NCBI GenBank assembly: GCA_963836435.1
Contig: CAWIJI010000011.1
Coordinates: forward strand, 9,678-73,677
Length of the DNA: 64,000 nucleotides
DNA from: an uncultured Acidobacteriota bacterium
Lineage (GTDB): Bacteria; Acidobacteriota; Terriglobia; 20CM-2-55-15
Reading direction: 5' to 3'
In this document: positions 29,024-60,416 of the stretch, piece after piece
Numbering within the stretch: position 1 is the first letter of the stretch
Layout of the letters: the number at the start of each line of letters is the position of its first letter
Made by a program: the position numbers and the translations under genes
The notes under the pieces: model-generated
The model's database searches: none
The model's input: the letters and a program-made list of their open reading frames with translations, nothing else
What the model was told of the DNA's origin: nothing

Positions 29024-29190
29024 CACGCCGGAGGCGTGCTGAGAATTTAGCCCCGGGTTAAGCGAGCGCAACCCGGGGTTGCCGTAACGGAGATGTTTGC
29101 ACCCCGGCAGGGGTGCAGGGATTCCTCGCACACCCCTGCCCTTGCCCTGCCGGGGTGCGAACGACCCTCGTGAGATGAACCCGGGTGTCG
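29024..29190 (+). repeat. MITE-like hairpin repeat family, copy 1 (partial; lacks terminal TIR module)
   Basis: Shares the cacgccggaggcgtg / ccccgggttaagcgagcg..cccgggg / caccccggcaggggtg / gtgagatgaacccgggtgtcg modules with the copies at 34.6, 48.2, 54.1, 58.7 and 60.1 kb. Confidence 0.8.
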
Positions 29191-29268
29191 AAGCTGCTTA
29201 CCGCAACCACTCCCCAGCGGAAGCCGAAGAAGAATCTCCTGGATACGTTCGGGGTGCACGGCCCGAAT

Positions 29269-29593
29269 TCAGTATTGGGGGATGGTGGGGTCTACTGTCA
29301 CGGACCAGAGATCGATACCGCCGCTCATGCTGCGGGTCTGGGTCAGGCCCTGCTGGCGAAGGTAGACGGCGGCGCTCAGGCTGCGGACCCCGTGATGACA
29401 GACTGTGACGATGGGCGTGTCCTTCGGCCAGGTTTCCACGATTTCCTTTGCCAGCGTTTCGTCCACCAGGCGGCAGCCTTCGATTCGTGCAATTTCATAT
29501 TCCTGCGGCGTGCGTACATCGATCAACGTGACGGCGCCCTTCTTCATCAGCTCCGCCACTTCCGTTGGCGAGATTTCGAGGTTCGGTTCCATT
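29269..29593 (-). CDS. rhodanese-like domain protein
   Basis: Active-site loop CHHGVRS. About 108 aa from MEPNLEISPTEV. Confidence 0.8.
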
Positions 29594-29727
29594 GTCGTTA
29601 CTCCGTAAACAGCATTGGTGCAACTTCGTTGAGGTTGCGCTGCCATACCGGATACGCATGAGCGCCGCCGGTGATGCGATAGATATGCTCGACCTTGTGT
29701 CTCGCAAGTGAGGTTTCATGGCCGGGA

Positions 29728-30492
29728 TTATACCCCGCAAATCCTGGGGAGCACGCTGCTGATGGCGTCCCTGAAGACGGCGTCGGCGATGCCGTCAAAA
29801 GGAGTCGGCTGTGCATTGATAATGATGACGCGGGCGCCCGCAGCTTTGGCGCCCGGAACCAGACCGGCGACGGGGTAGACCTGCAGGCTTGTTCCAATCG
29901 AGACCATGACATCGCAATCCCGCGCTGCGGCGGCGGCGCGACGCAGAACCTCGGGCACGAGTGCCTGGCCGAAGGATATGGTGTCGCTCTTGAGCAACCC
30001 GTTGCATTGACGGCACGGCGGATCCTGTTCTCCACCGCGCACGCGATCGAGCGTTTCCTGCATCGGTCCCCTCCAGCCGCAATCCAGACAAATCACGGCG
30101 TGCACGGTGCCGTGCACCTCGATGACGCGCGCGGGCGAGTTGCCGGCGCGTTGATGCAGGCCATCGATGTTCTGAGTAATGAGGGCGTGCAATTTGCCGC
30201 GGCGCTCGAGGGTTACAAGGGCCGCGTGTCCGGCGTTGGGCCGGGCCGTCCACGCCGGATGTTCGAGTCGTGCCTGCCATGCCGCTTTTCGAACTTCGCG
30301 GTCCGCAACGTAGCAGCGAATGTCCGACATCTTCTCTGCGGCCGGATTGCGCGTCCACAGTCCCTGAGGCCCTCGGAAATCCGGGATGCCCGAGTCTGTC
30401 GAAATGCCGGCGCCTGCGAGAACTGCCACACGTTTGGCGTGATCCAGCCAACTCTTTGCTTCGGCGATGGCAGCGGCTTCCACGAGAGCCAT
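29728..30492 (-). CDS. cobB: NAD-dependent protein deacylase (Sir2/CobB family)
   Basis: GAGISTDSGIPDFRG motif. Zn-ribbon CLDC...CRQC. HG and QNIDGLH motifs. Confidence 0.9.
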   Translation of the reverse strand: MALVEAAAIAEAKSWLDHAKRVAVLAGAGISTDSGIPDFRGPQGLWTRNPAAEKMSDIRCYVADREVRKAAWQARLEHPAWTARPNAGHAALVTLERRGKLHALITQNIDGLHQRAGNSPARVIEVHGTVHAVICLDCGWRGPMQETLDRVRGGEQDPPCRQCNGLLKSDTISFGQALVPEVLRRAAAAARDCDVMVSIGTSLQVYPVAGLVPGAKAAGARVIIINAQPTPFDGIADAVFRDAISSVLPRICGV

Positions 30493-30961
30493 CTTAACGC
30501 GCGTTTGAGAGCCGGCGCACGTCCCATAAATCGGAAACTCGTTGTCCGGTTTCGATTGACTGCCGCGGCAGCGGGTGTATTCTCAAGAAACGAAATCGGC
30601 CTAAATCCGAACTCGAAAGAGAGAGGGTGCGGGGGACCCAAACAGCGCGTAAGCGCTGCGGGGCGAATCCGAAGGTGGTAACGCCAGCGGTAGGGCGGCT
30701 TCCCAGCCCGAGTCCGTCAGCTAACCTCGCCGGCCAGAGCGGAAGAAACGATGAACCTTCACAACATAGTCTACCAACAACACACGATACCTAAGCCCTA
30801 GACGCGCGTTGCGCGGAGGGAATTTCAAGAGACTTCCGTGAAATTCGGCACGTGTCTCCGGTTCCCGGGCCAGGTTCAGGCAATTTCGTGAACGTCCCGC
30901 AATCTACTCCGCGCAGTTCGTGGACAGAGGTGTACGAACGCAGATTGGAGGCTGCACTTCA

Positions 30962-33040
30962 ATGACTATCACTTTGCTTCTTTGGACATTCGGGATTGTT
31001 CTGGCGCTTGTACTGATTCCCTGGCTTGCCGGGGTTCGATACATTCCGCACAACAAAGTCGGTATTGTCGAAAAGCTCTGGTCGCCCAAAGGCTCGTTGA
31101 CGGGTGGGCGCATCGTGGCTCTCGGAGGTGAAGCGGGTTTTCAGGCTGAACTTCTGCGCGGGGGAGTGCACGCGGGATTTTTCCCGTGGCAATACCGGAT
31201 TCACAAGGAACCGCTGGTCATGATTTCTGAGAGCAAGATCGGCTATGTCTATGCGCGCGACGGAAGTCCGCTCCCGCCGACGCAGACGCTTGCCCGGATT
31301 GTGGACTGCAATCACTTTCAGGATGCCGAGGGGTTCCTCAACCATGAAGGGCAGCGCGGCCGGCAGCGAGCCATTCTTCGTGAAGGCGTGTTCGCCATCA
31401 ACACGGCGTTGTTCGTCGTGATTACGGAGGATCGTGTCTTCGCCGGCCCGATGCGCGACCGGCAACAAAGCAAGTTCAATGAGTGGCAGGGCCAGTTGAA
31501 GTCCCTGCTGGGATTCGATCCGGTGGTTGTGGGCTTTGGCGGCCAGGCGGCGATCAGAGCCGAGGAACCTGTCGTGGGCGGCGCCGACCTCACGATGACG
31601 CCGACGGATACGATCGGCATCGTGACGATTCACGACGGCGCGCCACTGGAGTCGGGAGAAATCATTGCACCCGAAGTGCGAGCCGAAACCCGCAGTCACA
31701 ACTACTTCCAGGATCCGGAGACCTTTTTGTCTCTCGGAGGACGGCGTGGAAAGCAGTTACAAGTGCTGACCGACGGCACGTTCTTCATCAACCGCTGGTT
31801 CGCCACGGTTGAAACTCGTCCAAAGACGCTGATTCCGATCGGTTACGTCGGCGTTGTGGTGTCGTATTACGGCACCAGGGGCGAAGACACCACCGGCGAA
31901 GGATTTCGTTACGGCGAGCAGGTCGAACTCGGGGAGCGCGGGGTGTGGAAACAAGCGCTGCCTCCGGGGAAGTATCCGGTGAATCCCTATGCCGTGAAGG
32001 TGGAGCTGGTGCCGACGGTTAACTTCGTCTTGCGCTGGATTACCGGCCAGGCCGAGGCGCATCAATACGACAAGGACCTGGTTTCCATCGCGCTGATCAC
32101 GGCCGATGGTTACGAACCGGTGCTCCCGTTGTCGCTGGTGTTGCACATCGACTATGAAAAGGCCCCCAGCGTGGTCCAGCGTTTCGGCGATGTCAGCCGG
32201 CTGATCACGCAGACGCTGGATCCGATTCTGACGTCATACTTTCGCGATGTCGCGCAGTCGTCCAACATGCTCGATCTGTTGACGCACCGTGAAGATATTC
32301 AACGGCGGGCGACCGAGGAACTGGGGAAACGATTCAAGGAGTTCGATATCAATTGCATCGCGGTGTTGATCGGCCGTCCGGAGTCGACTATCGACGTGGC
32401 CGAGGAAGATCCGATCGACCGGCTCTTTGACCAGCTGCGCATGCGGCGGCTGGCCGAAGAACAGATTGCGACCTTCGGAAGGCAGGAGGAAGCCGCGATG
32501 CACCTGAAGGATCTTAACGACGCGAAAGCCGCGGCGGAAAAGCAGGCCGAGCTGACGCAAACCAAAATCGATATCGAAGTCGCGGGCAACCGCGGCGAGG
32601 CCCAGCTGGCGGAGGCGCAGCGTCTTTCTCGCCGTGATATTGCGCGGGCGGAAGGCGAGTCGCGATCGCGGGAACTGCTGGGTCGCGGCGAAGCTTCGAA
32701 GATCGCGCAAGTCGGTCTGGCGGAAGCCGCCGTTTCGCTGCAGAAGATTCGCGCGTATGGCGATCCGCGATTGTTCGCGTTGAACCTGGCGACCGATCGT
32801 TTCGCCAGCAGCGCCCAGCCTCTTGTTCCGGAACGCCTGCTGGTCATGGCAGGCGCCGCCGGCGGCGATCAGGCGGATCTCGGCTCTTCGAACGTGTTCA
32901 GCCAGTTCCTGACGCTGTTGCTGGCGGAGAAGTCCGGGCTGGGTGTGACCGAAAGCGGCAAAGGCATGGAGGACCTTGAAAAATTGACCGCAAGTCTGGC
33001 GAAAAAATTCGAGCAGACGATCAACGCGAGCGAATCGTAA
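30962..33040 (+). CDS. SPFH/band-7 (flotillin/YqiK-like) domain protein with long coiled-coil C-terminus
   Basis: N-terminal TM helix, SPFH core and an extended Ala/Glu/Arg-rich coiled coil. Start set at MTITLLLW. Confidence 0.8.
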   Translation: MTITLLLWTFGIVLALVLIPWLAGVRYIPHNKVGIVEKLWSPKGSLTGGRIVALGGEAGFQAELLRGGVHAGFFPWQYRIHKEPLVMISESKIGYVYARDGSPLPPTQTLARIVDCNHFQDAEGFLNHEGQRGRQRAILREGVFAINTALFVVITEDRVFAGPMRDRQQSKFNEWQGQLKSLLGFDPVVVGFGGQAAIRAEEPVVGGADLTMTPTDTIGIVTIHDGAPLESGEIIAPEVRAETRSHNYFQDPETFLSLGGRRGKQLQVLTDGTFFINRWFATVETRPKTLIPIGYVGVVVSYYGTRGEDTTGEGFRYGEQVELGERGVWKQALPPGKYPVNPYAVKVELVPTVNFVLRWITGQAEAHQYDKDLVSIALITADGYEPVLPLSLVLHIDYEKAPSVVQRFGDVSRLITQTLDPILTSYFRDVAQSSNMLDLLTHREDIQRRATEELGKRFKEFDINCIAVLIGRPESTIDVAEEDPIDRLFDQLRMRRLAEEQIATFGRQEEAAMHLKDLNDAKAAAEKQAELTQTKIDIEVAGNRGEAQLAEAQRLSRRDIARAEGESRSRELLGRGEASKIAQVGLAEAAVSLQKIRAYGDPRLFALNLATDRFASSAQPLVPERLLVMAGAAGGDQADLGSSNVFSQFLTLLLAEKSGLGVTESGKGMEDLEKLTASLAKKFEQTINASES

Positions 33041-34434
33041 CCCGACCGTCGGTGGCGGCGGATACAACTGGATGCTTTTTCAGGTACGGAAGTCACGGCA
33101 TCACGCAGGAGCGTTCCCGTGTCTTCCACGGAAGTTCCCTGGGTAAGCTCGGCCAGTCCGTCGCCGCCGGCGGCCATGAAGTCGTTGGCGGCGACGGTGT
33201 AACGCGACGCATCCCGCAGCGACTCGCCGTTGGCGAGAGTCGCCGAAAGAAGCCGGTTTGGAAAGGGCCGGGTCATATCCCACGAAACCTTCAGGCCGCT
33301 AACCGCAAGGACGCGGCGGCCCAGCAACTGTTTCACCTGAGCGCCGCTCAGGCTCATCTTCACTACAGTGTTCTGGAAGGGAAGCACGTCGAACAGGTCG
33401 CCTCTGGTAATCCGACCCTTCCGGATCGTCGAACGGATCCCCCCAACATTATGAAAAGCGATCTGCGTGCCGGCATAGTCGCGTATCGCGTCGGCCAGCA
33501 GGTTGTTCAGGGGCGATTCCTGGGTGTCGGACTTGACCAGATTGGCGCCCGCTTCGCCGACACGCTGGGCGGCGCGCGCAGCGAGCTGGCGCTCATACGG
33601 GGCGATGATCGCCGCGATATCCGGGTCTTTCGCAACACCCCGCACGGGGAACATCTGGGACGTCATGGATTCGATGGTCTTGCCAGACAAACGTATTTCA
33701 ACTTTGCCGAGATTCTGGGTGCTGCTTCCCGTTTCGACGATGAGCGTTTCCCCGACCTGCGTTGCACGAGTGGCGTGCGGATGGCCGGCAATGATGAGCC
33801 GGATTTCCGGAAAGGCTTTCGCGATCCGGACCTGCTCTTCGAACGAGACATGAGCAACAAGAAAAATGAAATCGGACTGCGGACGAACCATGGGCAGAGC
33901 TTCCCGGAGTGCGTCGATGGCGTTGGTGACTTTGATGTCCTTGAGATTTTTCGGATGCGTGACTTCGGAGAGTGTTTCCACCGTCAAACCGATCACGCCG
34001 ATGCGCAACCCTTTCACGTTCAGGATGGTGTAGGGCTGTACTTCCGGGACACCGCTCACATTCGCCGAGAGAACGGGAAAGTGCGCCTCTTTCAGGCGAT
34101 TCCGCAACTCCGTTATGCCGTAGTCGAATTCATGATTGCCCAGCGCGACGGCGGCGTACCCCAGCTTGTTCAGGATTTCGACCATCGGCTTGCCGAAAAA
34201 CTCGTCGTTGATCATCGAGCCGGTGAACATGTCGCCACCGTCGAGGAGGAGATCCGGACGCTGGCGTCGTATGAGGGTGGCAAGCTCGGCCATCCCTCCA
34301 ACGCCGTCCCGGGGCAGCACCTGTCCGTGCATATCGTTGGTGTGAAGCAGGACGAGCGTTGTTGGCGCCTGGGACAGCGCGAGGCCGCCGGCCAGCAGCA
34401 GGGAAGTAACGACGGTGAGCAGAAACTTCCGCAT
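32869..34434 (-). CDS. bifunctional metallophosphatase / 5'-nucleotidase (UshA/CpdB-like)
   Basis: Signal peptide, calcineurin-like metal ligands (HTNDMHG, GGD, GNHEFD) and a 5'-nucleotidase C-terminal domain. The 3' end overlaps the convergent SPFH gene by 172 nt, and the last ~40 codons are low-complexity. Confidence 0.85.
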   Translation of the reverse strand: MRKFLLTVVTSLLLAGGLALSQAPTTLVLLHTNDMHGQVLPRDGVGGMAELATLIRRQRPDLLLDGGDMFTGSMINDEFFGKPMVEILNKLGYAAVALGNHEFDYGITELRNRLKEAHFPVLSANVSGVPEVQPYTILNVKGLRIGVIGLTVETLSEVTHPKNLKDIKVTNAIDALREALPMVRPQSDFIFLVAHVSFEEQVRIAKAFPEIRLIIAGHPHATRATQVGETLIVETGSSTQNLGKVEIRLSGKTIESMTSQMFPVRGVAKDPDIAAIIAPYERQLAARAAQRVGEAGANLVKSDTQESPLNNLLADAIRDYAGTQIAFHNVGGIRSTIRKGRITRGDLFDVLPFQNTVVKMSLSGAQVKQLLGRRVLAVSGLKVSWDMTRPFPNRLLSATLANGESLRDASRYTVAANDFMAAGGDGLAELTQGTSVEDTGTLLRDAVTSVPEKASSCIRRHRRSGYDSLALIVCSNFFARLAVNFSRSSMPLPLSVTPSPDFSASNSVRNWLNTFEEPRSA

Positions 34435-34592
34435 GATGTGCCAAGCGTACCCTGTCCTGCGTACCGGGACAAGAGCAGGAAGAAACTCAGGACCCGCAGT
34501 TCGAGCGGCTGTCTCCTTGCGGCCTCTCGCACCCCTGCCGGGCACGTCTCGAACTTTGCAGGTTTAGCGTCCACCCCGGAGGGGTTCATGCC

Positions 34593-34785
34593 TGGAGTTT
34601 AGATATTTTGCACGCCGGAGGCGTGCTGGGAATTTAGCCCCGGGTTAAGCGAGCGAAGCGAGCGCAACCCGGGGTTACCGTAACGGAGATGTTCGCACCC
34701 CGTGAGATGAACCCCGGGTGTCGCTCGGCTCCACCCGGGGCTACCTTCCTTTCACGCCTCCGGCGTTCAAAATGTCTACCTCCGG
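34593..34785 (+). repeat. MITE-like hairpin repeat family, copy 2 (short variant with both terminal inverted repeats)
   Basis: Left end cctggagtttagatattttgcacgccggaggcgtg. Right end cacgcctccggcgttcaaaatgtctacctccgg is an approximate reverse complement of the left end. Confidence 0.8.
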
Positions 34786-34979: not shown

Positions 34980-35640
34980 CTACCCCTCGTCAAGAGGCTT
35001 CAAGCGGAGGGGGACACCTGCTCGAATATCCAACATCTCCACCCACTTGCGAATCTCGTCTGCCGCCGCCTCCAGCGTCGTTGTTCCCGACTTTCCCACC
35101 TTCAGCGAATGGTCGCCACGCTCCGTCCACACCAGAGTTGCGCGGCCGCCGATCCGCTGCACCACCGTCTCCAGCAGGGTACGCTCCGCCAGGGTATCCC
35201 TCGTGCCGCTGAGGAACAGCATGGGCAGCTCTATCCCGTAAAGGTGCGCATCCCGCAGCTGATCCTGCTTGCCGGGCGGATGTAACGGATACCCCAGGAA
35301 CACGAGCCCTGCAACCCCCTCTGTGCTGCCGGCGATGTAGGACGCCACCCTTCCGCCCATCGACTTTCCCCCGATGATGATTTTTTCAGGTCGATGTGTT
35401 TCCGCGACTTGTGCCACGACCTCTCGGTAGAGCGCCTGCATCCTGGGTTGTGGATCCGGAATCTTTCGTCCCTGCCGCATGTACTCGAAGTTGAACTGCA
35501 CGGACAGAAAACCGCGCTTCGGCAGCGCTTCGTGAAAGAATTGCATGAAGGGGGAGTCGATTCCCTGGCCTGCACCGTGCGCCAGGATAATGGCGACGTT
35601 CCCGTCCCAGTGTTCAGGTGCTGCTGCGCTCCAGTTCATC
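34980..35640 (-). CDS. alpha/beta hydrolase (dienelactone-hydrolase-like fold)
   Basis: Nucleophile elbow GGKSMGG, with downstream Asp and His positions. Confidence 0.75.
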
Positions 35641-40515: not shown

Positions 40516-40588
<73 letters not shown>

Positions 40589-40614
40589 TACACTTAAAGA
40601 TCAGACTGGGTTTC

Positions 40615-40635
40615 GGGGTACCACTGGGGTACCCC
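40615..40635 (+). other. perfect palindromic hairpin GGGGTACCactgGGGTACCCC 27 nt after tRNA-Lys
   Basis: Seen directly. May act as a terminator for the tRNA or lie at the boundary of the downstream island. Confidence 0.4.
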
Positions 40636-40677
40636 GTGGCCGCTATTGGGATTGAAGCGCGGCAGAGTAAGGCATTT

Positions 40678-41073
40678 CTATCTGACGATGAGTTCAGCGG
40701 CATTTGCGAGTTCTGTCGCAAGCTTCAACCAGCTGCCCTGATCCTGAGGAGGCCAATTTACGATGTTTCCGTGGCGTTCATGGGGGCGCGTATCGGGCTC
40801 GACAGTCAGTCCACGATTGAAAACTTCAGATGCTGAAAGATCGGCCCGTGCAATTATCGGTTTTCCGCGATGAGGAGCGACGTAGTCATCTCCGAGTTTC
40901 CAAATCTCCCCGTCACCTAGTTCATTTGTCCGATAGATAGATAGACTGAGATTCGCATGCGGAGGCGTGAAAGCGTTGAACTTCACTCGCTTTTTGACGG
41001 CAGAATACTTCGACCTCTCGTCCAAATATCTTGTGAGGCGCTCTTCAGCTCCGACGCTGCGCAGATCGATCAT
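40678..41073 (-). CDS. hypothetical protein (third gene of island operon)
   Basis: 131-aa ORF, 6 nt downstream of the previous gene. Has a ...PHERHGNIVNWPP motif. No confident family call. Confidence 0.45.
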   Translation of the reverse strand: MIDLRSVGAEERLTRYLDERSKYSAVKKRVKFNAFTPPHANLSLSIYRTNELGDGEIWKLGDDYVAPHRGKPIIARADLSASEVFNRGLTVEPDTRPHERHGNIVNWPPQDQGSWLKLATELANAAELIVR

Positions 41074-41079
41074 CTCGGG

Positions 41080-41592
41080 TTACGCCTGCTTGAACCGGTT
41101 CAGCCTCGAAAGGGCATCGATGATGTGTCCCGGAATCGAGTCGTTGAATGCCAGTACCCCGGATATCGCGTTGGGAGTCCCCTCAAGGCTTGCATACGTG
41201 AGCGACTGGCGCCCTGCCATAGCAACCACGAGGAGGTGATTCTTCTCGACGTACCATTCCAGACCAATCTGACCGTTTGGCGAAGGAACAATCTCTGGCA
41301 TCTCATTCATCGAAGGAAGGAGACTGATGAACCGGGATGCTTCCCGATACGCGTCAACTGATATGGGAGCAGCTCCCTCACCGTCCCAGTTTTCCATGCG
41401 GCATTCCACAAAGACTGTGTTGAGTCTCCGGAGCGTCTCAGATTTTGGGCTGAGGAGCACAGCTCGGGCGACGGCCTCGGTGTACTGCCGAACCAATAGC
41501 TGCGCTAGATGCTGCGACTCTACGCCAATACCCGTGTTTGCGTAGTAGCCGAAGCCTTGATAGTTGCGGTGCTCTGCAATGGCTGGACTCAT
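41080..41592 (-). CDS. hypothetical protein (second gene of island operon)
   Basis: 170-aa ORF with a 4-nt overlap with the TIGR04255-like gene. Confidence 0.45.
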   Translation of the reverse strand: MSPAIAEHRNYQGFGYYANTGIGVESQHLAQLLVRQYTEAVARAVLLSPKSETLRRLNTVFVECRMENWDGEGAAPISVDAYREASRFISLLPSMNEMPEIVPSPNGQIGLEWYVEKNHLLVVAMAGRQSLTYASLEGTPNAISGVLAFNDSIPGHIIDALSRLNRFKQA

Positions 41593-42353: not shown

Positions 42354-42775
42354 ATCTTCGACGTTTCAACTAAGAGAACGTGTACTGCCTGGGACGGCAA
42401 AGCCTCGCAAGGACCTTATTGAGTGGTTCGTGCTGTTCATTGAACCCCGGATCCGCGAAGGTCGCCGGTTTCCAACGGGGGCACTAGGGTTCAGTTTCAT
42501 CACTGATGATCCCCTTTCTGTATGACGGTTGCAACCAAGGCGTGATGAAGCCTGACCTTGATGCTCAATCATTTATTACCCGCATGAGGGACAGAGTAGG
42601 TCATGGGCTCTGCCACAATTGGCAACATTGCAATACTTCACATATGAAACTGTCCTCACATGGGGGAACAACCCTCGTGTTTTTGAGCATAGTCAGCAGG
42701 TCAATAGCTCCGAGGTTATGTTGCCGGTATACACGGGCAGCCGTACAACCAGAGCCACGAGAATCAGAGGTCCCT

Positions 42776-43261: not shown

Positions 43262-43360
43262 CGAGCCGCTGGAAGAATTGCCTCATTTGAGATAATCAGC
43301 AACATGCCGCACTCGACATACGGCGATAGAATCCCACTAACGATTCCCTTCGGAGGTTGT

Positions 43361-43693: not shown

Positions 43694-43704
43694 GGTACGC
43701 CTCA

Positions 43705-44154: not shown

Positions 44155-44214
44155 GATCACAGAACCCTAAACGGCAACTCCGCCTCTGCGAGTGCTGCTT
44201 CGCGAATCTTGCGA

Positions 44215-47134: not shown

Positions 47135-47226
47135 GTCTAGGAACGACGCGGCTCTGACAGCTTGACTGCTCGGGCGCCCGATTCGCTTATATACCGCTCC
47201 GTCAATGGCATACCATTCTGAGTGCC

Positions 47227-48051
47227 ATGTACAGCCAGCTCGCCGCGCTCTCCAGTGACCACGTTGTGCTTGATCTGGGCAGTGGCAGTAGCAGCTTTCA
47301 CTACGAAACATGTCCCGCAAAGATCATTGCGATCGACGTATCGTCTGACAGAACGCCCGTCATGCTTTCTGAACGCGTGGCCTTCATTCATGCAAATGCA
47401 GCTTCTCTCCCACTGGCCGACAAATCAGCGGACGTCGTTATCTCTCACCACACGTTGGAGCATTTCGCCGACTACAGGGGGGTACTGTCGGAAATATATC
47501 GAGTCTTGAGACCTGACGGTTGGTTATGGATTGCGGTGCCAAACGGTTATGGTTTCGACGATTTTCTTTACCGGTGGGTGTTCTCGGGGGGTGGGCATGT
47601 CAACCGGTTCAGGCATGATGCACTCGTTACCGAAGTGGAGGAAGTAACGCGACTTCGGTTGCGCGATGAGTGCGCGTTGTTCAGCGGTTTCGTTTATCTG
47701 AAAAAGCCGACGGCGCGCGAGCTGCAACACTACCCGCCATCAGCCAGGCCTCTTGGAAATATTCCGGACGGTTTTTCCCACTTTGGCTCTCTCGCGTTGA
47801 ACGGTGTTACACGCATTGCCGACAGACTGTTTGGGTCGCGTCTCAGCCAATATGGCTGGGGATTGTTATTTTCGAATGCCGGATTGAATGCCTCGGGGCT
47901 TCCTTCGTACTTCAATGTTTGCCGCAGCTGTGGGTCCGGGCTCTCCTATCGCTTGCTGAAACGGAAAACTCTCTTTGGAGTCGGTCTTTATCATTGTCCT
48001 TACTGCAAAGTGCCCAACGTTTGTGTCGTTCCACCGGATTCTTGTGAATAA
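47227..48051 (+). CDS. class I SAM-dependent methyltransferase (Methyltransf_11-like)
   Basis: Motif I VLDLGSGSSSF, ...VISHHTLEHF..., LRPDGWLWIAVPNG. Confidence 0.8.
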   Translation: MYSQLAALSSDHVVLDLGSGSSSFHYETCPAKIIAIDVSSDRTPVMLSERVAFIHANAASLPLADKSADVVISHHTLEHFADYRGVLSEIYRVLRPDGWLWIAVPNGYGFDDFLYRWVFSGGGHVNRFRHDALVTEVEEVTRLRLRDECALFSGFVYLKKPTARELQHYPPSARPLGNIPDGFSHFGSLALNGVTRIADRLFGSRLSQYGWGLLFSNAGLNASGLPSYFNVCRSCGSGLSYRLLKRKTLFGVGLYHCPYCKVPNVCVVPPDSCE

Positions 48052-48138
48052 CTGCGATGAAAATGCTGAGCTCGTTATGGCGGGCGTAACGAGAATTTTG
48101 TTCCCGCAAGGCATAACGGGCCAGGCGCCGAAGGCGCC

Positions 48139-48400
48139 CTGGAGTTTAGAAATTTTTGAGTCTGAGCGGGCGCGGAGACACGAGGTTACGTCTCCGGTTT
48201 GCAGGTTCGTCCGCAAGGCGATGGCGACGTTGAAACGTGAGTCTCAAGCACGCCGGAGGCGTGCTGAGAATTTAGCCCCGGGTTAAGCGAGCGAAGCGAG
48301 CGCAACCCGGGGTTGCCGTAACGGAGATGTTCGCACCCCGGCAGGGGTGCAGGGATTCCTCGCACCCCGGCAGGGGTGCGAAGGCCGCTCGTGAGATGAG
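48139..48400 (+). repeat. MITE-like hairpin repeat family, copy 3 (with extra ~100-bp module after the left TIR)
   Basis: ctggagtttagaaattttt ... [100-bp module also present inverted at 60247-60352] ... cacgccggaggcgtgctgagaatttagccccgggttaagcgagcgaagcgagcgcaacccgggg ... gtgagatgag. Confidence 0.8.
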
Positions 48401-48455
48401 CAATCTTCCTGAGGATATCCGACTCAAGCGTTCCTGACGGATAGTTCAAGCGTAA

Positions 48456-49175
48456 ATGATATCTTCCGGCAGAATGATGAGGCGAACGGCTCGCATCTGT
48501 TGGATCGTGGCAATAGTTGCGCTGGCAACCCTGCCCTTCCTGGGCCGCGCTGTTTTCCTGGATGAACATTTGTTGCTCCTGCTCGTGCGCGGAGTTTTGA
48601 CGAACGGCGTGTCGGCCCATCTGGATGTGCCGACTATCTTCTTTGGAATTTCTCTCGAGAATCTGTCTTCGCATGCGCATCCGCCAGTAGCCGAATACTG
48701 TCTCGCCCTGCTCTACAAATTGTTCGGCGGCTTCAATGGGCCGGGATTCCGCATGGCGTTTTCTCTTTTTCCTCTTTCCGCCGCACTTGCCTTCTATGAT
48801 CTCGCTCGGCGTTTCACGCGCACTCCTTTGATCGTTACCCTGGTTTTTGCTGCCAGTCCCGCTTACTTCGTGATGAGTTCCACTTTGATGGCGGACATTC
48901 CCTCTCTGAGTTTTCTGCTCATTGGCTTCGCTTTGTATCTCAGGGGATCCTTATGGCCGGCTTCATTCTCTTTTGCACTCGCGCTCGGCACGACCTATCC
49001 GACTTTGATTCCTTTTTGTTCTCTGCTCATCTGGATGGCGTTGAATCGGCGTCCTGCTCGAGAGTTTGCGGCGCTGGCCGCTGCTCCCCTACCTCTCGTG
49101 GCGTGGTTGGCCCTGACCGCATTTCATTTCCATCAGATTCCACTTCTTCTTCCAAGTCGTCATACAGAGGGATGA
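48456..49175 (+). CDS. polytopic membrane protein resembling the N-terminal half of a GT-C glycosyltransferase (PMT/ArnT-like); possibly truncated
   Basis: DE motif in the first loop (FLDEH) and about 7 TM helices. Only 239 aa, against 450-550 aa for typical family members. A downstream +ORF (49351..49815) might be a displaced C-terminal part. Confidence 0.4.
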   Translation: MISSGRMMRRTARICWIVAIVALATLPFLGRAVFLDEHLLLLLVRGVLTNGVSAHLDVPTIFFGISLENLSSHAHPPVAEYCLALLYKLFGGFNGPGFRMAFSLFPLSAALAFYDLARRFTRTPLIVTLVFAASPAYFVMSSTLMADIPSLSFLLIGFALYLRGSLWPASFSFALALGTTYPTLIPFCSLLIWMALNRRPAREFAALAAAPLPLVAWLALTAFHFHQIPLLLPSRHTEG

Positions 49176-49584
49176 CAACCGACAGTTTCATGGAATTTCT
49201 GGTCGCTGTTTGGAAGCAGTCATCCCGCAATCTTTGGTGGCCTTCCGCGGACGTTCAATACCTTTCTGAGAGTGAGGGGTGGCGTATCCTTTCAGCAGGA
49301 TGCTTGACCTGCGTGACTAAAAGTAAGGAGACGCTTGTCGGTGGGCGTCGGTGATGGAGCTGTTTTGTTGCGGCCAGAGTGACTGGAGCCGCGACGGTTA
49401 CGCCGATCAGAGGATAGTCGTACCAAGGACATTGTTGGATGCGATCGCTTCCTTTGGTTATGTGAAGGACTGGTACCGACCACCGAAACGCGGCTTTATC
49501 GAGGTACTGAGGAGGCTTTGCCTTATGCGACCTTCGGCTCGGAAGATGCTCGCCGGTCTCTCTCCCAGCGAGTTTACCGGGCCG

Positions 49585-50037
49585 CTACTCGTTGACTCTT
49601 TGAAGCTGCTTAACGTCCAGCAGGTCCTTGTCCCGGCCGGACGCTTTCTTGTTCGCAATCAAAGCATCGAGACCAATGTAATCGACGGTATGTCCACCAA
49701 GATCTCCCTGAACCCGAGACGTCCACGCCTGTTCGAAGGACAAACCAGAGATCATCGTCAAGATGTCGATCCTATTGGGTGGCCGGCCAAGCTGAATCAT
49801 TCGGCCAGGCTTTGAAAGGTCTTCAATCGTGAGGGATAACGCTCCGAAGCCAAAAGCCGCAAGGGCATCCATTACTCTTGCTGCATTTTCTGACGTCGGT
49901 CTTACGAGGATATCGATATCGCCTGTATAGCGGGGATGTCCGTGAAATGCCACGGCGTGCCCGCCAACGACAAGAAACTCAACTTTCCTGGAGATCAGTA
50001 ATACGACAAACTCGCTCAAATCGGTCTGCAGCGCCAA
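49585..50037 (-). CDS. minimal nucleotidyltransferase-fold protein (MNT-like)
   Basis: Signature VVGGHAVAFHGHPRYTGDIDILV (GGx9-13 DxD). Confidence 0.6.
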   Translation of the reverse strand: MALQTDLSEFVVLLISRKVEFLVVGGHAVAFHGHPRYTGDIDILVRPTSENAARVMDALAAFGFGALSLTIEDLSKPGRMIQLGRPPNRIDILTMISGLSFEQAWTSRVQGDLGGHTVDYIGLDALIANKKASGRDKDLLDVKQLQRVNE

Positions 50038-50170
50038 GAGACCTCCGGTAGTTTTCGATCAGGTTGAGGAGGATGTCGACGCGTTCTTTGGGTGTAAGAC
50101 TGGCATAGTACTCAGCGTCGGCGCGTTCCGCTTCTTCAAAGCTTTGAAAGACTCTGGCTTCGCGTTCCAC
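49979..50170 (-). CDS. small helical protein upstream of and overlapping the MNT-like gene (possible cognate partner)
   Basis: 63-aa ORF (FQSFEEAERADAEYYASLTPKERVDILLNL...). Overlaps the NTase start by 59 nt. Confidence 0.35.
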   Translation of the reverse strand: MEREARVFQSFEEAERADAEYYASLTPKERVDILLNLIENYRRSLGAADRFERVCRITDLQES

Positions 50171-50589
50171 AAGGAAAATCTAACACGGTTCGTCGATAAT
50201 CGGCGCACTCGAGGGGACGCGCCTTACTGCAGCCACGGCTCGGAGCGGCCCGGATTCCGTGCAACCTGAACGATGGAGCGCCCCCGGAAAAACCCAACGG
50301 AATACCTCTGATAAGACACGGCGAATGCCCGGAGCACTATCAAAAAACCGCCGATCCCTAACTTGCGTGCCCATGAGGGCAAAGATTTCCCGCAAGGGCG
50401 CATCAGTCTGAACGCAGTCAGCGCAAAGGGGCGGCGAGAATGCCGCGTCGTCGAAAAGGTAGAAGTCGAAGCCGCGAGTGACGACCGTCGGTGAGCCGCG
50501 CCGTTCGTGCCAACCATCCGAAGGCTCCTTCGATCGCGTCTGCCGGCGGGTGGAAATACCGCAGCGTGATCGTAGAGTACAATTTCATC

Positions 50590-51303
50590 ATGAATAAGGG
50601 GCTGCTTGCCGGGGCGCGCGTGATCTTTATCCTGACGATGACGCTGCACACGACCCGCTCAGCTGCTATCGCCCAGCATGTGCTCGCCGGAATGAAGGTC
50701 GGTGGCCACGTGATCGCCCCCCTCGCCCTCCCTCGCTACGGTTCATCTACGCCGACCGCGTACAATGCGTTCACTCTTGGTCCCGTAGTGGAGTTGACGC
50801 TGCCGCACCGCGCGGGTGTCGAACTCGACGCGTTGCACAAAAGTTATGCTTACACCTATGCCGGCGGGGTTGATGTTGGTTTTTACTCACCGGCCTCAGG
50901 CGGAATCCTGGGGAAATCCGATGTTCACGTTCGCAGCTGGGAGTTTCCTGCTTTGATGAAGCTGCGTCTTACCGACCGTGTATCGCGCCTCTTCATGGCA
51001 GGGGGGATTTCGTTTCGGCACACCAGCGCTTCAGCTCATGTCCAGGGCAACCGATTTGGTCCGTTTTATAGCCAGGCGCCGACTCCGGTGGATTTCACGC
51101 AGAGTTCTCGCGCACTGATTCGAAGATGGACTACCGGGGCAGTGGTGGGGATGGGCGTTAATCTGCGCGCCGGTGACTTCCAATTTGCCCCTGAAGTCCG
51201 ATACAACTACTGGACCCATCCCGCCATCAGCCAGGGGCTGGGGTTCAGGTCGCAGCAAAATGCCATCGATGTCCTCGTGGGCTTGACGTTTGGAAAGAGA
51301 TGA
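50590..51303 (+). CDS. outer-membrane beta-barrel (porin/OmpA-like barrel) protein
   Basis: Signal peptide MNKGLLAGARVIFILTMTLHTTRSAAIA. Alternating amphipathic beta strands with an aromatic-rich C-terminus. Confidence 0.55.
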   Translation: MNKGLLAGARVIFILTMTLHTTRSAAIAQHVLAGMKVGGHVIAPLALPRYGSSTPTAYNAFTLGPVVELTLPHRAGVELDALHKSYAYTYAGGVDVGFYSPASGGILGKSDVHVRSWEFPALMKLRLTDRVSRLFMAGGISFRHTSASAHVQGNRFGPFYSQAPTPVDFTQSSRALIRRWTTGAVVGMGVNLRAGDFQFAPEVRYNYWTHPAISQGLGFRSQQNAIDVLVGLTFGKR

Positions 51304-53924: not shown

Positions 53925-54075
53925 TCTGTCCTGAAACTCACCCCGAAGGGGTGACGGGAACTTGGCCAGGGGTTAAGCGAAGCGCAACCCCTGGGTCAGT
54001 AAGTCCGCGCATGGTCGCACGCTGAAAGCGTGCGAGGATTGCTCGCGCCCTTTTCAGGGCGCGGGTTTCGTGGCT
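53925..54075 (+). repeat. hairpin-rich intergenic repeat module related to the MITE-like family
   Basis: caccccgaaggggtga, ccaggggttaagcgaagcgcaacccctgg and gcgcatggtcgcacgctgaaagcgtgcgaggattgctcgcgc are variants of the hairpins in the main family. Confidence 0.6.
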
Positions 54076-54104
54076 ATCGTCTCACCACCGCTCCGCGGTC
54101 AAAG

Positions 54105-54331
54105 CACGCCGGAGGCGTGCTGAGAATTTAGCCCCGGGTTAAGCGAGCGAAGCGAGCGCAACCCGGGGTTGCCGTAACGGAGATGTTCGCACCCCGGCAG
54201 GGGTGCAGGGATTCCTCGCACCCCTGCCGGGGTGCGAACGCCCCTCGTGAGATGAACCCCGGGTGTCGCTCGGCTCCACCCGGGGCTACCTTCCTTTCAC
54301 GCCTCCGGCGTGCAAAGTGTCTAAACTCCAG
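54105..54331 (+). repeat. MITE-like hairpin repeat family, copy 4 (full internal hairpin set; right TIR present)
   Basis: From cacgccggaggcgtgctgagaatttagcc... to ...cacgcctccggcgtgcaaagtgtctaaactccag. Flanked by a 13-bp direct repeat ACCGCTCCGCGGT (54087-54099 and 54335-54347). Confidence 0.85.
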
Positions 54332-54411
54332 AGCACCGCTCCGCGGTGCAACAGCCCGTCCAAAGGAGCCGAGTTTCGCGACAGAAACCTACTACGAAAC
54401 GCTCCCCAACC

Positions 54412-55086: not shown

Positions 55087-55109
55087 GATGGGAGCCCGGT
55101 ATCTAATAC

Positions 55110-57858: not shown

Positions 57859-57930
57859 ATTCTACTCCCAGCCGCGGCAAACCGTCAGTGTGGCAAGGTG
57901 CCGCACGGGCGCGGAGAAGGAATGCCGGGA

Positions 57931-58602: not shown

Positions 58603-58708
58603 TTAGCCTTCCTTTCATCGGGGCTGAATTAATTACGGGACAGCGCGTAAGCTACTACGAAAAACACGTCCGCAAGAATTGATTTCGCGAGGAATCAAAC
58701 TGCCCCGC

Positions 58709-58942
58709 CTGGAGTTTAGACATTTTTCACGCCGGAGGCGTGAAAGGAATTCAGCCCCGGGTGGAGCCGAGCGACACCCGGGGTTCATCTCACGAGCGGC
58801 TTGCACCCCTGCCGGGGTGCGAGGAATCCCTGCACCTCTGCGGGGCCCTGCCGGGGTGCAACATTCCCGATACGGCAACCCCGGGTTGCGCTCGCTTCGC
58901 TCGCTTAACCCGGGGCTAAATTCTCAGCACGCCTCCGGCGTG
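58709..58942 (-). repeat. MITE-like hairpin repeat family, copy 5a (inverted orientation, left TIR intact)
   Basis: cctggagtttagacatttttcacgccggaggcgtgaaagg...ccccgggtggagccgagcgacacccgggg...cacgcctccggcgtg. Confidence 0.85.
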
Positions 58943-58944
58943 CA

Positions 58945-59008
58945 CTGGAGTTTAGACATTTTGCACGCCGGAGGCGTGAAAGGAAGGAGCCCCGGGTGGA
59001 GCCGAGCG
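58945..59008 (-). repeat. MITE-like repeat copy 5b, left fragment (interrupted by the IS5-family insertion; continues at 60079)
   Basis: ctggagtttagacattttgcacgccggaggcgtgaaaggaaggagccccgggtggagccgagcg. The same sequence is continuous in copy 5a. Confidence 0.8.
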
Positions 59009-60078
59009 GGCTTTGCACATTAATGGATTCTCGAAGCAGATTCGCTGCCACTTGCTGACGCGGTTTTCGCTTCCGTGTTCAAGGTCTACTCCACGGTCTC
59101 TGCCCGTCGTTTTGCTTCCGACCTTCGCGAATCCAAAGAGCGCGGATACATCGACCATGCTCCGCACTTCAATTCCGTTTTGAACTACCTTGAGAATCCC
59201 GACTTGCGCCCGATCCTAATGGAACTGATTGAGGCTTCCGCGATGCCGCTAGAGGCAATCGAAACGGAATTCGCGGCTGACTCCACGGGCTTCAGCACGT
59301 CGCGCTACGAACGATGGTACGACCACAAATACGGCAAGGAATCGTTCAAGCAAGAATGGGTAAAGGTTCACGTCATGGCTGGAGTGAAAACGAACGTGGT
59401 AACTGCCGTGGAGATTCTGGACAAAGATGCAGCCGATTCGCCAGTGCTCCCGACGTTGCTCACGACTACGCAGAAACAGTTCCACGTGGCGGAAGTTTCA
59501 GCCGACAAAGGCTATCTGTCCTACAGGAACGCCAAGGCAATCGAGGATGCAGGCGCAACGCCTTTCATTGCGTTCAAGAAAGACAGCGGACCCGGAAACT
59601 ACCGGAAGGAAGGCGTCGCTAAGACCGCCGCGTGGTCACGGATGTATCACTACTTCCAATTTCGCCGGGAAGAATTCTTGGAGCACTACCACAAGCGGAG
59701 CAACGTCGAGGCAACGTTCTCTATGATGAAGCGGAAGTTTGGTGATTCACTGCGGAGCAAGACAGACGTGGCGATGGTCAACGAAGCCTTGTGTAAGGTG
59801 CTCTGCCATAATATCGTCGTGCTGATTCATGAGATGTTCGAGCTTGGTATTGATCCGATGTTTCTGAATACTCGGAGTGTCAGCTAGAATGCGCCCAACG
59901 CTCAGGAGGCCAAATGTTAGGATTTCGTCCAAACGAAGTGCCATTTATCGTGCTGGCGCTTGCCCTCTTTTTCTTCGCAATTCCATACCTTGCGCGACGG
60001 CAAAAGAAGTAAGACCCTGCACAACGGGAACGTGGCTGCACAACGGGAACTCAATTAATGCTCCCGTTGTGCAAAGCC
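59009..60078 (+). mobile_element. IS5-family insertion sequence (IS903-group-like, 1070 bp) with 9-bp target-site duplication AGCCGAGCG
   Basis: Ends GGCTTTGCACA... and ...TGTGCAAAGCC (11-bp IR). Identical 9-bp AGCCGAGCG at 59000-59008 and 60079-60087. The insertion interrupts the ccccgggtgGAGCCGAGCGacacccgggg hairpin of a MITE copy. Confidence 0.8.
59075..59887 (+). CDS. IS5-family DDE transposase (DDE_Tnp_1)
   Basis: ...EWVKVHVMAGVKTNVVTAVEILDKDAADSPVLPTLL...VSADKGYLSYRNAKAIEDAGATPFIAFKK... GTG start; 270 aa. Confidence 0.8.
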   Translation: MFKVYSTVSARRFASDLRESKERGYIDHAPHFNSVLNYLENPDLRPILMELIEASAMPLEAIETEFAADSTGFSTSRYERWYDHKYGKESFKQEWVKVHVMAGVKTNVVTAVEILDKDAADSPVLPTLLTTTQKQFHVAEVSADKGYLSYRNAKAIEDAGATPFIAFKKDSGPGNYRKEGVAKTAAWSRMYHYFQFRREEFLEHYHKRSNVEATFSMMKRKFGDSLRSKTDVAMVNEALCKVLCHNIVVLIHEMFELGIDPMFLNTRSVS

Positions 60079-60416
60079 AGCCGAGCGACACCCGGGGTTC
60101 ATCTCACGAGCGGCTTGCACCCCGGCAGGGGTGCAAGGAATCCCTGCACCCCTGCCGGGGTGCAACATTCCCGTTACGGTAACCCCGGGTTGCGCTCGCT
60201 CCGCTCGCTTAACCCGGGGCTAAATTCTCACCACGCCTCCGGCGTGCTCAGACTCGCGTTTCAACGTCGCCATCGCCTTGCGGACGAACCTGAAAACCGG
60301 AGACGTAACCTCGTGTTTCCGTTCCCGCTCAGACTCAAGAATGTCCAAACTCCAGAGCACGCCGGAGGCGTGCTGAGAGTTTAGCCCCGGGTGTCGCTCG
60401 GCTCTCCACCCGGGGG
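60079..60416 (-). repeat. MITE-like repeat copy 5b, right part plus nested extra module and a minimal copy
   Basis: 60079-60246 continues the interrupted element (...acacccggggttcatctcacgagcggcttgcacccc...cacgcctccggcgtg). 60247-60352 is the about 100-bp module also seen in copy 3. 60353-60416 is a minimal TIR plus one hairpin unit. Confidence 0.75.

Follow-up and report, generated by a model that had tools for sequence, protein, structure and literature searches.

A hairpin-rich palindromic repeat family, probably of the tagged REP-doublet kind, in intergenic DNA of an uncultured acidobacterium

The window, which is the whole 64,000-nucleotide stretch of DNA from an uncultured Acidobacteriota bacterium analysed here, carries a family of repeats that is, on balance, probably a GTAG-tagged REP-doublet (REPIN/BIME-like) non-autonomous palindromic element moved by a Y1 HUH transposase. 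Elements of this kind are common, although the phylum has been little studied, and nothing about the family is surprising in kind. The anatomy of the unit, its conserved tag, the compensatory changes in its hairpins, its insertion relative to related genomes and the high identity of its copies were observed directly.

As shown in Table 1, eight intergenic copies or fragments occur in five intergenic regions within 31 kb of the window. The covariance model places all of them at 29-60 kb and none at 1-28 kb. The seven copies reported by the first-pass annotation are all present, with coordinates that agree or nearly agree. A diverged eighth arm (53938-54037), missed by that annotation, has the same architecture built from other stems (TCACCCC..GGGGTGA, CCAGGGGTT..AACCCCTGG and GCACGC..GCGTGC). 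The 34-mer CTGGAGTTTAGACATTTTGCACGCCGGAGGCGTG, with at most one mismatch, has four matches (34592+, 54298-, 58709+ and 58945+) and none in shuffles; the hairpin GCACGCCGGAGGCGTGC, with at most two mismatches, occurs 11 times against 0.05 expected, and CACCCCGGCAGGGGTG has eight sites against 0.08 expected. The alpha arms in the window are 94-100% identical, with 107 of 107 positions matching between copies 3 and 4. Identical arms occur at unrelated loci, the flanks of the copies are unrelated, and many copies are truncated. Copies in both orientations, together with a tandem and nested array (58.7-60.4 kb), were found as had been described.

Table 1. Coordinates, strand, composition and setting of the repeat copies and associated features in the window.
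Feature	Coordinates	Strand	Composition and remarks	Location
Copy 1	29023..29190	+	alpha arm (H1, TTAG, short-loop H2, H3), decayed second H3, truncated H4; no T; 75.6 bits	between 3' ends of molybdopterin oxidoreductase and rhodanese genes
Copy 2	34592..34785	+	T, H1, H2, (H3 pair deleted), H4, H1', diverged T'	between abhydrolase_11 3' end and 5'-nucleotidase 5' end
Copy 3	48139..48399	+	T (48139-48156), module X (48157-48247), alpha arm, second H3; truncated before H4; 78.1 bits	within low-GC island
Eighth arm, diverged	53938..54037	+	covariance model 56.5 bits, E 2.7e-12, outside training set	
14-bp direct repeat CACCGCTCCGCGGT, left of copy 4	54086..54099	+	direct reading; itself a small hairpin	
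Copy 4, most complete	54104..54331	+	H1, H2, H3 / H3', H4, H1', T'; folds into one long hairpin	between ABC ATPase and FtsX permease genes
14-bp direct repeat CACCGCTCCGCGGT, right of copy 4	54334..54347	+	hairpin 54333-54349	
Copy 5a	58709..58943	-	full palindrome, reverse; + strand reads T, beta arm, alpha arm; ends at H1'	
Copy 5b	58945..60355	-	T, beta arm (IS-interrupted), alpha arm, module X (60248-60337), T' (60338-60355)	
IS5-like insertion sequence	59009..60079	+	transposase 59075-59887 (PF01609)	nested in hairpin H4 of copy 5b
Copy 6, minimal unit	60357..60416	+	H1, TGAGAGTTTAG tag, H4-type hairpin with loop flipped relative to beta arms; 37.6 bits	

The gene map of the window, which is backed by Pfam, bears out the earlier statement that all copies are intergenic. 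An open reading frame at 33052-34602(+) that overlaps copy 2 was rejected as a gene and has no homologues. Most copies lie between co-directional or convergent genes and some between divergent genes, in both orientations, and the orientation of the copies relative to the genes follows no consistent pattern. The genes surrounding the five regions are syntenic and unduplicated. Copy 4 lies within an ABC transporter operon and must therefore be transcribed with it.

Read from the sequence, the repeat unit is an imperfect, hairpin-rich palindrome of ~220 bp, consisting of two arms that are inverted relative to each other with their tags outward. Each arm runs from a small hairpin of 7 bp, through an unpaired (G/T)TAG tag at the 5' foot of a large, GC-rich CCCCGGG hairpin and a linker of ~20 nt, to a second small hairpin. 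Three hairpins per arm are an unusual build, and reading the sequence confirmed the set of GC-rich hairpins named in the first-pass annotation. The linker lengths are constant, and CAGA or CTGA follows the small hairpins of the window family. The stem of the large hairpin has 9 bp in the window (CCCCGGGTT/AACCCGGGG), with loops of 10-19 nt, and 12-16 bp at related loci, with a loop of 3 nt; it has the form of the basal stem of a REP (fully paired, GC-rich and 7-20 bp long, or a long bulged hairpin). The alpha arms of the window carry TTAG in place of GTAG, as do half of the window arms in all; GTAG abuts the large hairpin in the beta arm of copy 4, and the beta arm of copy 5a reads TCAG. As single-stranded DNA or RNA, the unit can take up two folds, a set of local hairpins or a single long one: copy 4 forms one hairpin of ~110 bp (z = -14), and copies 4, 5a and 5b each hold two inverted REPs able to form one long hairpin, which is the arrangement of a REPIN.

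Some copies also carry a terminal motif, CTGGAGTTTAGA (T), and some an optional module X; this module, reported as an extra ~100 bp in copies 3 and 5b, is present in both and measures ~91 bp. At opposite ends the T motif does stand in inverted orientation, as would be expected of the 34-bp terminal inverted repeats originally described, but the full 34-mer occurs in only four copies, and in no copy is the hairpin core directly bordered by an intact 34-bp end on both sides. T is found inverted at both ends only in copy 2, where the second end has diverged, and in copy 5b; copies 1, 3, 4, 5a and 6 have one T or none (one each in copies 4 and 5a, none in copy 1), and in copies 3 and 5b module X separates the T motif from the hairpin. 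The unit is not defined by a terminal repeat of ~34 bp: its conserved core is the local hairpins with their (G/T)TAG tag, which related families have without T.

Thirty arms, drawn from the window and from 18 loci in other genomes, share a single architecture when aligned. TAG stands at the large hairpin's foot in every one of these 30 arms, for which the search pattern left the tag stretch free, and GTAG abuts the large hairpin in 24 of the 24 aligned arms from Acidobacteriota MAGs. Many contigs of other Acidobacteriota genomes carry this arm architecture with other loops and spacers, and a sister family occupies at least 12 contigs of one MAG (JBAZBK01). MAGs of Thermoanaerobaculia and of other Acidobacteriota have the three-hairpin arm, as do contigs assigned to Verrucomicrobiales and Fimbriimonadaceae bins; the Terriglobia-labelled match is partial. 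Solo arms stand ~45-130 nt upstream of genes at loci L002 and L021. The stems are kept by compensatory changes, and in the JBAZBK01 family the spacers have diverged while the hairpins are conserved. Paired cells make up 95% of the alignment, and double changes occur in 13 of 30 pairs, a level reached in 0 of 500 shuffles (slid controls gave 1-4 pairs), and this covariation does not separate RNA from single-stranded DNA.

In relatives of the window organism, at ~80% nucleotide identity, the syntenic sites are without the repeat family. At locus L023 the ATPase stop overlaps the permease start (GTGA), which is a precise empty site; at this junction the window carries 513 bp of hairpin DNA, including copy 4 and an older arm. 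Copy 2 is absent from the syntenic intergenic DNA of relatives, and a scan with the covariance model gives 12 strong arms in 31 kb of the window and nothing above 26 bits in ~80 kb of relatives. Copy 3 sits in a low-GC island that was acquired horizontally. From these sequence comparisons, the repeat appears to have been inserted recently in this acidobacterial lineage. The first-pass annotation had proposed an active or recently active non-autonomous element; the family is indeed modular, non-coding and recent, as the empty sites and the alpha-arm identity indicate, but it has no consistent target-site duplication. Compared with relatives, the region has undergone an inversion and the insertion of an island.

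In the REP-doublet reading, the tag and hairpin on single-stranded DNA would be recognised by a Y1 HUH tyrosine transposase whose single-copy gene lies elsewhere in the genome; candidates are a RAYT (PF01797) or one of the TIR-associated or class 3 enzymes that have been reported from Acidobacteria. The enzyme would cut and rejoin there, so that the doublet would spread into intergenic DNA without target duplication, and exchange between the shared palindromic stems, by recombination or by slippage during replication, may have shuffled, flipped, deleted and duplicated the modules. We infer the enzyme, the single-stranded DNA route and this origin of the modular differences. A Y1/HUH transposase gene was sought in the window and ~350 kb of other loci with an approximate query and a motif regular expression, and none was seen. 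The operational definition of a REP is GT[AG]G located 0-2 nt 5' of a GC-based, fully paired stem (PMC6006769), and the large hairpin agrees with it in all JBAZBK01 copies and in beta arms such as that of copy 4, though not in the TCAG beta arm of copy 5a or the TTAG alpha arms. The window loops of 10-19 nt are within the range of 2-20 given in PMC3733652 and above the range of 2-5 given in PMC6006769. The two large hairpins of the unit lie head to head as a dimer whose spacer contains small stem-loops, an arrangement known from other REP families (PMC3733652), and composite inverted repeats of a REP plus an unrelated stem-loop flank RAYT genes in Pseudomonas.

The GTAG-tagged REPs, dimers and REPINs of Pseudomonas, Enterobacteria and Stenotrophomonas (Nunvar 2010, Bertels & Rainey 2011, Di Nocera 2013) resemble the window family in the unpaired tetranucleotide tag at the 5' foot of a GC-rich hairpin, in the inverted hairpin pair with tags outside and a spacer of 20-100 bp able to hold small stem-loops, in the long-hairpin folding of the whole unit, in the extragenic location, mainly between co-directional and convergent genes, and in the absent target duplication and compensatory stem changes. 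Unlike them, the window arms have two extra small hairpins each, half of the arms have TTAG instead of GTAG, the large-hairpin loops have 10-19 nt, a terminal T motif and an optional 91-bp module are added, and the host phylum is Acidobacteriota. The BIMEs of E. coli, which are mosaics of REP types and linker motifs, are similarly modular, with copies that differ by whole modules, and are similarly arranged in tandem arrays of alternating orientation and placed between operon cistrons; however, the sequences are unrelated, and the window modules, which are larger, make up a palindrome of defined extent (~220 bp) and not clusters with open ends. BOX elements of Streptococcus pneumoniae share the modular build (A-Bn-C style), the variable module number and the strong predicted folding, whereas their sequence and host are unrelated and they are not palindromic doublets with a tetranucleotide tag. 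Several features count against the REP reading, in addition to the searches noted here that saw no Y1/HUH gene and, in JGI metagenomes, did not find the exact subfamily. The alpha arms have TTAG and one arm TCAG, not GTAG; the large-hairpin loops are longer than those of canonical REPs; and the terminal T motif and the 14-bp direct repeat are more typical of cut-and-paste or site-specific elements. The diverged spacers and conserved hairpins of JBAZBK01 could also reflect host function instead of mobility.

A distinct REP-like system, as opposed to a further REPIN family, is a tentative alternative to which we give limited weight. The three-hairpin arm would be an ancient conserved module recognised by a host protein or by an acidobacterial HUH system, of TIRYT or class 3 type, that has yet to be described, and the T-bounded palindrome of the window a recently mobilised derivative inserting beside small GC hairpins. 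The TIR repeats of TIRYT genes and the hairpins of class 3 Y1 HUH genes (Koribacter, Solibacter; PMC3733652, PMC6006769), compared by description only, come from the same phylum and likewise consist of hairpins or inverted repeats in high copy number on which a tyrosine HUH enzyme presumably acts. The CAGA or CTGA beside the small hairpins of the window recalls the CnGA foot reported for class 3, but that foot is 5' of the hairpin, and the window CnGA lies 3' of the small hairpin. It is also rather unlikely that the repeat is a classical IS-derived MITE, in which the ~34-bp ends (T and the first hairpin, CTGGAGTTTAGAC...H1) would be the TIRs of an unseen autonomous IS and a DDE transposase would act by cut-and-paste with target duplications. 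The true inversion of T, the bounding of copy 5b by T and T', possible short imperfect repeats beside copy 2 (CATGC/CATCC) and the recency of a family absent from relatives agree with a MITE, and the repeat is, like Correia elements and MITEAba12, small, non-coding and intergenic, with inverted ends and insertion polymorphism between relatives. The direct repeat flanking copy 4, annotated as 13 bp, does exist and would also agree, but it has 14 bp, lies 4 and 2 nt from the ends of copy 4 and is therefore not a clean target duplication, and it also forms a small hairpin like those of the element. The T ends have no duplication of fixed length, and the conserved part of the repeat is the internal hairpins common to T-less families elsewhere: the T motif was sought in the related families of other genomes and target duplications at full elements in JBAZBK01, and neither was found. 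T resembles the internal tag (CTGGAGTTTAG vs CTGAGAATTTAG), so that it may be another tag unit. T with H1 was not found in JGI metagenome contigs, and T alone matched only unrelated AT-rich phage coding DNA. Shared ends with the repeat were sought in both window IS elements without result, their ends GGCTTTGCACA and CTAGGAGCCTGTAGGGGATA being unrelated to it. The IS5-like element, with ends GGCTTTGCACA, is outside the repeat family; copy 5b is split because this element inserted, with a 9-bp target duplication AGCCGAGCG at 59000-59008 and 60080-60088, and removing it with one copy of the duplication exactly restores the hairpin.

A structured nucleic acid with a function for the host is an improbable reading; selection, and not transposition, would then maintain the repeat, for example as a site that stabilises or processes mRNA, as a bidirectional attenuator or as a platform to which proteins bind. 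The conserved and compensated stems between drifting spacers, the constant linkers, the necessary co-transcription of copy 4 and the solo arms upstream of genes are what such a function would predict. The structured RNA family suggested earlier agrees with the covarying hairpins, but the Rfam 15 search of the window gave no match for the repeat at the gathering score, only a c-di-AMP riboswitch and two tRNAs, and at E up to 10 copy 4 drew only far-below-threshold miRNA-precursor models that match any long hairpin. The copies, moreover, stand in convergent, co-directional and divergent regions in both orientations, close relatives work without copies at the same sites, and the many truncated copies and the identical arms at unrelated loci also argue against host function. 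A purely local origin, in which segmental duplication and gene conversion produced the copies inside this 30-kb region without any means of dispersal, is very improbable. The confinement of the copies to one part of the window, the inversion and island insertion there, and a search of JGI metagenomes that did not find the exact subfamily outside this locus point in its direction; against it, the copies occupy five separate regions among syntenic, unduplicated genes, their flanks are unrelated, one lies in the horizontally acquired island, and the sister family is spread through another genome.

To our knowledge, REP/REPIN-type repeats have been studied almost only in Proteobacteria. Tagged-hairpin doublets in Acidobacteriota, with richer arms and with clear differences in presence and absence between close relatives, would extend REP biology to a major soil phylum. 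The repeat family is also a marker for strain typing and helps explain assembly breaks in acidobacterial MAGs. In the window and its relatives, the same intergenic junctions, one of them in the ABC transporter operon, have been repeatedly colonised by different palindromic families, and one insertion remodelled the 3' end of a gene; both observations bear on operon expression and gene annotation.

As listed in the table, the repeat family is assembled from a terminal motif (T), four hairpins (H1-H4) and an optional module (X). The alpha arm runs from H1 through CTGAGAATTTAG to H2, and then through a 20-nt linker to H3, and the beta arm runs from H1 through AAGGAAGGTAG to the reverse complement of H4, followed by a 20-nt linker and H3. 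A complete unit consists of an alpha arm and an inverted beta arm and spans about 210-230 bp, as in copies 4, 5a and 5b. Copy 4 is predicted to fold into one long hairpin, with a folding energy of -94.7 kcal/mol as DNA and -169.5 kcal/mol as RNA (z about -14 for both). T lies outside H1 at some of the ends, and module X is placed between T and H1 in copies 3 and 5b.

The first-pass annotation had described three GC-rich hairpins common to the copies, insertion in both orientations and an array at 58.7-60.4 kb, all of which were confirmed by reading the window sequence; the copies also differ by whole modules, as it proposed. The extra module, given there as ~100 bp, is present in two copies with a length of about 91 bp. 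The terminal repeats of ~34 bp hold in part. The 34-mer was matched with at most one mismatch at four sites (34592+, 54298-, 58709+ and 58945+), against 0 matches in dinucleotide shuffles, and the full 34-mer is confined to those four sites; in no copy is the hairpin core bordered directly by intact 34-bp ends on both sides, contrary to the proposal that they bound the unit. The hairpin part of the 34-mer, GCACGCCGGAGGCGTGC, was counted 11 times in the window (0.05 expected), and CACCCCGGCAGGGGTG was present at eight sites (0.08 expected). Around copy 4, the direct repeat measures 14 bp instead of 13; it is a small hairpin itself and does not adjoin the element ends.

Parts of the repeat unit and positions of the features in the window and in related loci (L024, L119 and L120)
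Feature	Position or composition	Setting	Arrangement of flanking genes
Part T	CTGGAGTTTAGAcATTTT		
Part H1	GCACGCC-GGA-GGCGTGC		
Part H2	CCCCGGGTT-[AAGCGAGCG(AAGCGAGCG)C]-AACCCGGGG		
Part H3	GCACCCC-GGCA-GGGGTGC		
Part H4	CCCCGGGTG-[TCGCTCGGCTC]-CACCCGGGG		
Module X	48157-48247; 60248-60337	copies 3 and 5b	
Copy 1	29023-29190	between molybdopterin oxidoreductase and rhodanese	convergent
Copy 2	34592-34785	downstream of abhydrolase_11, upstream of 5'-nucleotidase	co-directional
Copy 3	48139-48399	between methyltransferase and PMT_2-like gene, in low-GC island	co-directional
Diverged eighth arm	53938-54037	same junction as copy 4	within operon
Copy 4	54104-54331	between ABC ATPase and FtsX permease of one transporter	within operon
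Copy 5a	58709-58943	between 209-aa gene and hpaB	divergent
Copy 5b	58945-60355	between 209-aa gene and hpaB	divergent
Copy 6	60357-60416	between 209-aa gene and hpaB	divergent
14-bp direct repeat	54086-54099; 54334-54347	around copy 4	
Hairpins outside T ends	34570-34591; 48122-48138; 54333-54349; 58927-58943; 60357-60373		
IS5-like element	59009-60079	transposase 59075-59887	
IS1182-family element	45457-47134	transposase 45508-46947	
c-di-AMP riboswitch (RF00379)	30588-30750	upstream of SPFH/Band 7 gene (30920-33040)	
tRNA-Lys	40516-40588		
Low-GC island	40600-51300	directly after tRNA-Lys	
Inverted segment	36358-51360	PALP to island	
Second palindromic family	window 34980-35030; L120 9700-9950; L119 9700-9940; L024 9750-9990	same intergenic junctions	

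The loop of H2 is a 9-nt tandem duplication, which copy 1 lacks. The H4 loop of copy 6 (60385-60415) is flipped relative to its arm context, and the second H3 of copy 3 (48360-48381) is direct instead of inverted, the stems being otherwise identical. These loop flips and module changes suggest recombination or slippage across the shared palindromic stems. At five of the seven T ends, a small GC-rich hairpin lies just outside the element at a distance of 0-4 nt; this could reflect insertion next to hairpins, or T could be a spacer between two hairpin units.

The gap that splits copy 5b is an IS5-like insertion sequence of 1071 bp nested in a repeat hairpin. It has GGCTTTGCACA ends, subterminal TGCACAACGGGA repeats and a transposase with PF01609 that scores below the NCBIfam IS5 cut-off. 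The 9-bp target duplication AGCCGAGCG flanks it, and the hairpin is restored exactly on joining. The identical junction was found on a 1.1-kb Logan contig of run ERR11718635 (locus L022). The second insertion sequence belongs to the IS1182 family (transposase 378.6 bits against a cut-off of 270) and is bounded by perfect inverted ends of 20 bp, CTAGGAGCCTGTAGGGGATA, that have no relation to the repeat family.

The junction that holds copy 4 was compared with those of relatives, in which the permease shows 89% amino-acid identity and about 80% nucleotide identity. In the relative L023, the stop codon of the ATPase gene overlaps the start of the permease gene (GTGA), leaving zero intergenic DNA, and in the relative L024 the junction is filled by a different palindromic element of 253 bp, whereas in the window it measures 513 bp and is made up of copy 4 together with the diverged arm and further hairpins. 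Copy 2 is absent from the abhydrolase/5'-nucleotidase spacer of the relatives, where other palindromic families are located. The covariance model, which also revealed the diverged arm, detected 12 arms in the window at 37 bits or more, all at 29-60 kb and none in 1-28 kb, and nothing above 26 bits over about 80 kb of relatives. The alpha arms of the window are 94-100% identical, and the arm of copy 3, which lies in a horizontally acquired island, equals that of copy 4 at 107/107 positions.

Related families were sought in one genome per species with a pattern of H1, 9-13 free bases and CCCCGGGT. At least 21 loci matched, at least 12 of which are on different contigs of the Thermoanaerobaculia MAG JBAZBK01; the matches listed also come from further Acidobacteriota MAGs and from single contigs with Verrucomicrobiales and Fimbriimonadaceae labels, which reflect binning only. 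A Streptomyces match looks like chance. The arm plan of the window recurs in the related loci: a small hairpin is followed by cAGAAGGTAG, then by a large hairpin CCCCGGGTCGCC..GGCGACCCGGGG, a variable linker of ~20 nt and GCACCCCGGAGGGGTGC-CAG, and a mirrored second arm comes next, the stems of which differ by paired substitutions (GCATCCC/GGGATGC; CCGGGGG/CCCCCGG). The T motif and module X are absent from the related loci examined, and their elements have no flanking duplication. Among the matches listed, about 9 elements lie between co-directional genes, 5 between convergent genes and 0 between clearly divergent genes on a crude ORF map.

When 30 arms are aligned, every one has TAG at the foot of the large hairpin, although this stretch was not constrained by the scan pattern. 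The three local hairpins are paired in 95% of cells, and double-sided changes occur in 13/30 pairs, a level of covariation reached by 0/500 shuffles, while slid-partner controls gave 1-4 such pairs. Therefore, the local hairpins themselves are maintained, as DNA or as RNA, between which this test does not distinguish.

With its 5' tag in the GTAG form, as in the copy 4 beta arm and all 24 aligned arms from Acidobacteriota MAGs, the large hairpin corresponds to the REP working definition of PMC6006769, and two such hairpins with their tags outward form the "head-to-head dimer" of PMC3733652. That paper also describes dimer spacers that contain small stem-loops, dimers that lie within longer palindromes, and inverted repeats around RAYT genes that combine a REP with an unrelated stem-loop. 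According to both papers, tyrosine HUH genes accompanied by families of inverted repeats or of hairpins occur in Acidobacteria. On these grounds, the family may well be a REP-doublet element (REPIN/BIME-like), which a Y1 HUH enzyme acting in trans on single-stranded DNA would probably move. It would then be a REP/REPIN-like family whose arms have three hairpins each, with T as an additional terminal motif and X as an optional module; such repeats have hardly been described in this phylum. However, unlike REPs, the alpha arms in the window carry TTAG instead of GTAG, the large-hairpin loops are long, this subfamily carries T, and one copy has the 14-bp flanking repeat. No RAYT was found in the window or the fetched loci by tblastn with an approximate E. 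coli YafM query and a HUH...Y motif scan, a weak test. It is also conceivable, though with considerably lower likelihood, that an undescribed HUH or host system of Acidobacteria uses the three-hairpin arm as its substrate, and that the T-bounded form targets small GC hairpins.

The inverted T ends would suit a MITE of the DDE type; this origin is rather unlikely, since there is no fixed duplication, the sister families are T-less, T + H1 had no match in JGI metagenome contigs, and the autonomous partner sharing the repeat ends, as envisaged earlier, was not found in the window, where both insertion sequences have unrelated ends. Compensated stems and fixed linker lengths could also be expected of an RNA or DNA structure that serves the host, but the lack of an Rfam match, the mixed orientations and contexts, the truncated copies and the absence of the element from the same sites in relatives make this quite improbable. 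Local duplication alone is very improbable, because the genes around the copies are syntenic and single-copy, and one copy lies in a foreign island.

A literature search returned no description of the repeat family, and nothing on hairpin sequences of Acidobacteria was found in the supplementary files of PMC6006769. The window-specific patterns TTTAGCCCCGGGTTAAGCGAGCG and CTGGAGTTTAGANANTTTNCACGCC gave 0 matches in JGI metagenome contigs, the general family pattern gave 0 in viral contigs, copy 4 had no plasmid match by blastn in distant mode, and no relevant Rfam family appeared at gathering or permissive thresholds. T alone matched viral contigs 94 times, about chance level; all of these come from AT-rich phage DNA (mean GC 0.36) unrelated to the family, the hairpin follows in no case, and they were rejected as family members. 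Single three-hairpin arms were observed on the Verrucomicrobiales-binned contig L007 (2233-2333; compensated third hairpin GATCCC..GGGATC) and the Fimbriimonadaceae-binned contig L020 (2007-2097; GACCC..GGGTC), and could reflect a wider distribution, horizontal transfer or mis-binning.

On the Pfam-supported gene map all copies are intergenic, as first annotated. The ORF 33052-34602(+), considered as a gene whose TAG stop is supplied by T, has no homologues, and the idea of T as a source of stop codons was therefore dropped; the gene actually present is that of the 5'-nucleotidase, on the opposite strand. The c-di-AMP riboswitch scores 73.9 bits and precedes an SPFH/Band 7 gene of 706 aa. Such genes are not known to be among the classes usually regulated by this riboswitch.

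The low-GC island (0.51-0.56) is absent from the relatives; its ORFs mostly have no Pfam match, and it contains a SWIM-finger protein, a methyltransferase, a PMT_2-like protein and copy 3. In the relatives L023 and L120, a different island (Fic, NUDIX, Uma2) lies at this tRNA gene. An inversion in the window covers 15 kb, from PALP to the island, in comparison with two relatives in which the order is ABC, FtsX, PALP, GGDEF, QueG, tRNA-Lys, island, Na/H exchanger, AlkZ, abhydrolase and onward. The inversion endpoints have no repeat copy and no long inverted repeat, only small unrelated palindromes. Two genes are missing from the window, that of the Na/H exchanger and, between SIR2 and rhodanese, that of an esterase. 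A second, unrelated palindromic family, with hairpins GTCCCCTCCT..AGGAGGGGTGGC, is found in the relatives at the same intergenic junctions, and its window copy is decayed and fused to the 3' end of abhydrolase_11. The C-terminal tail of this protein is about 14 aa longer than those of the relatives and diverges after ...IRKW (VEMLDIRAGVPLRLKPLDEG).
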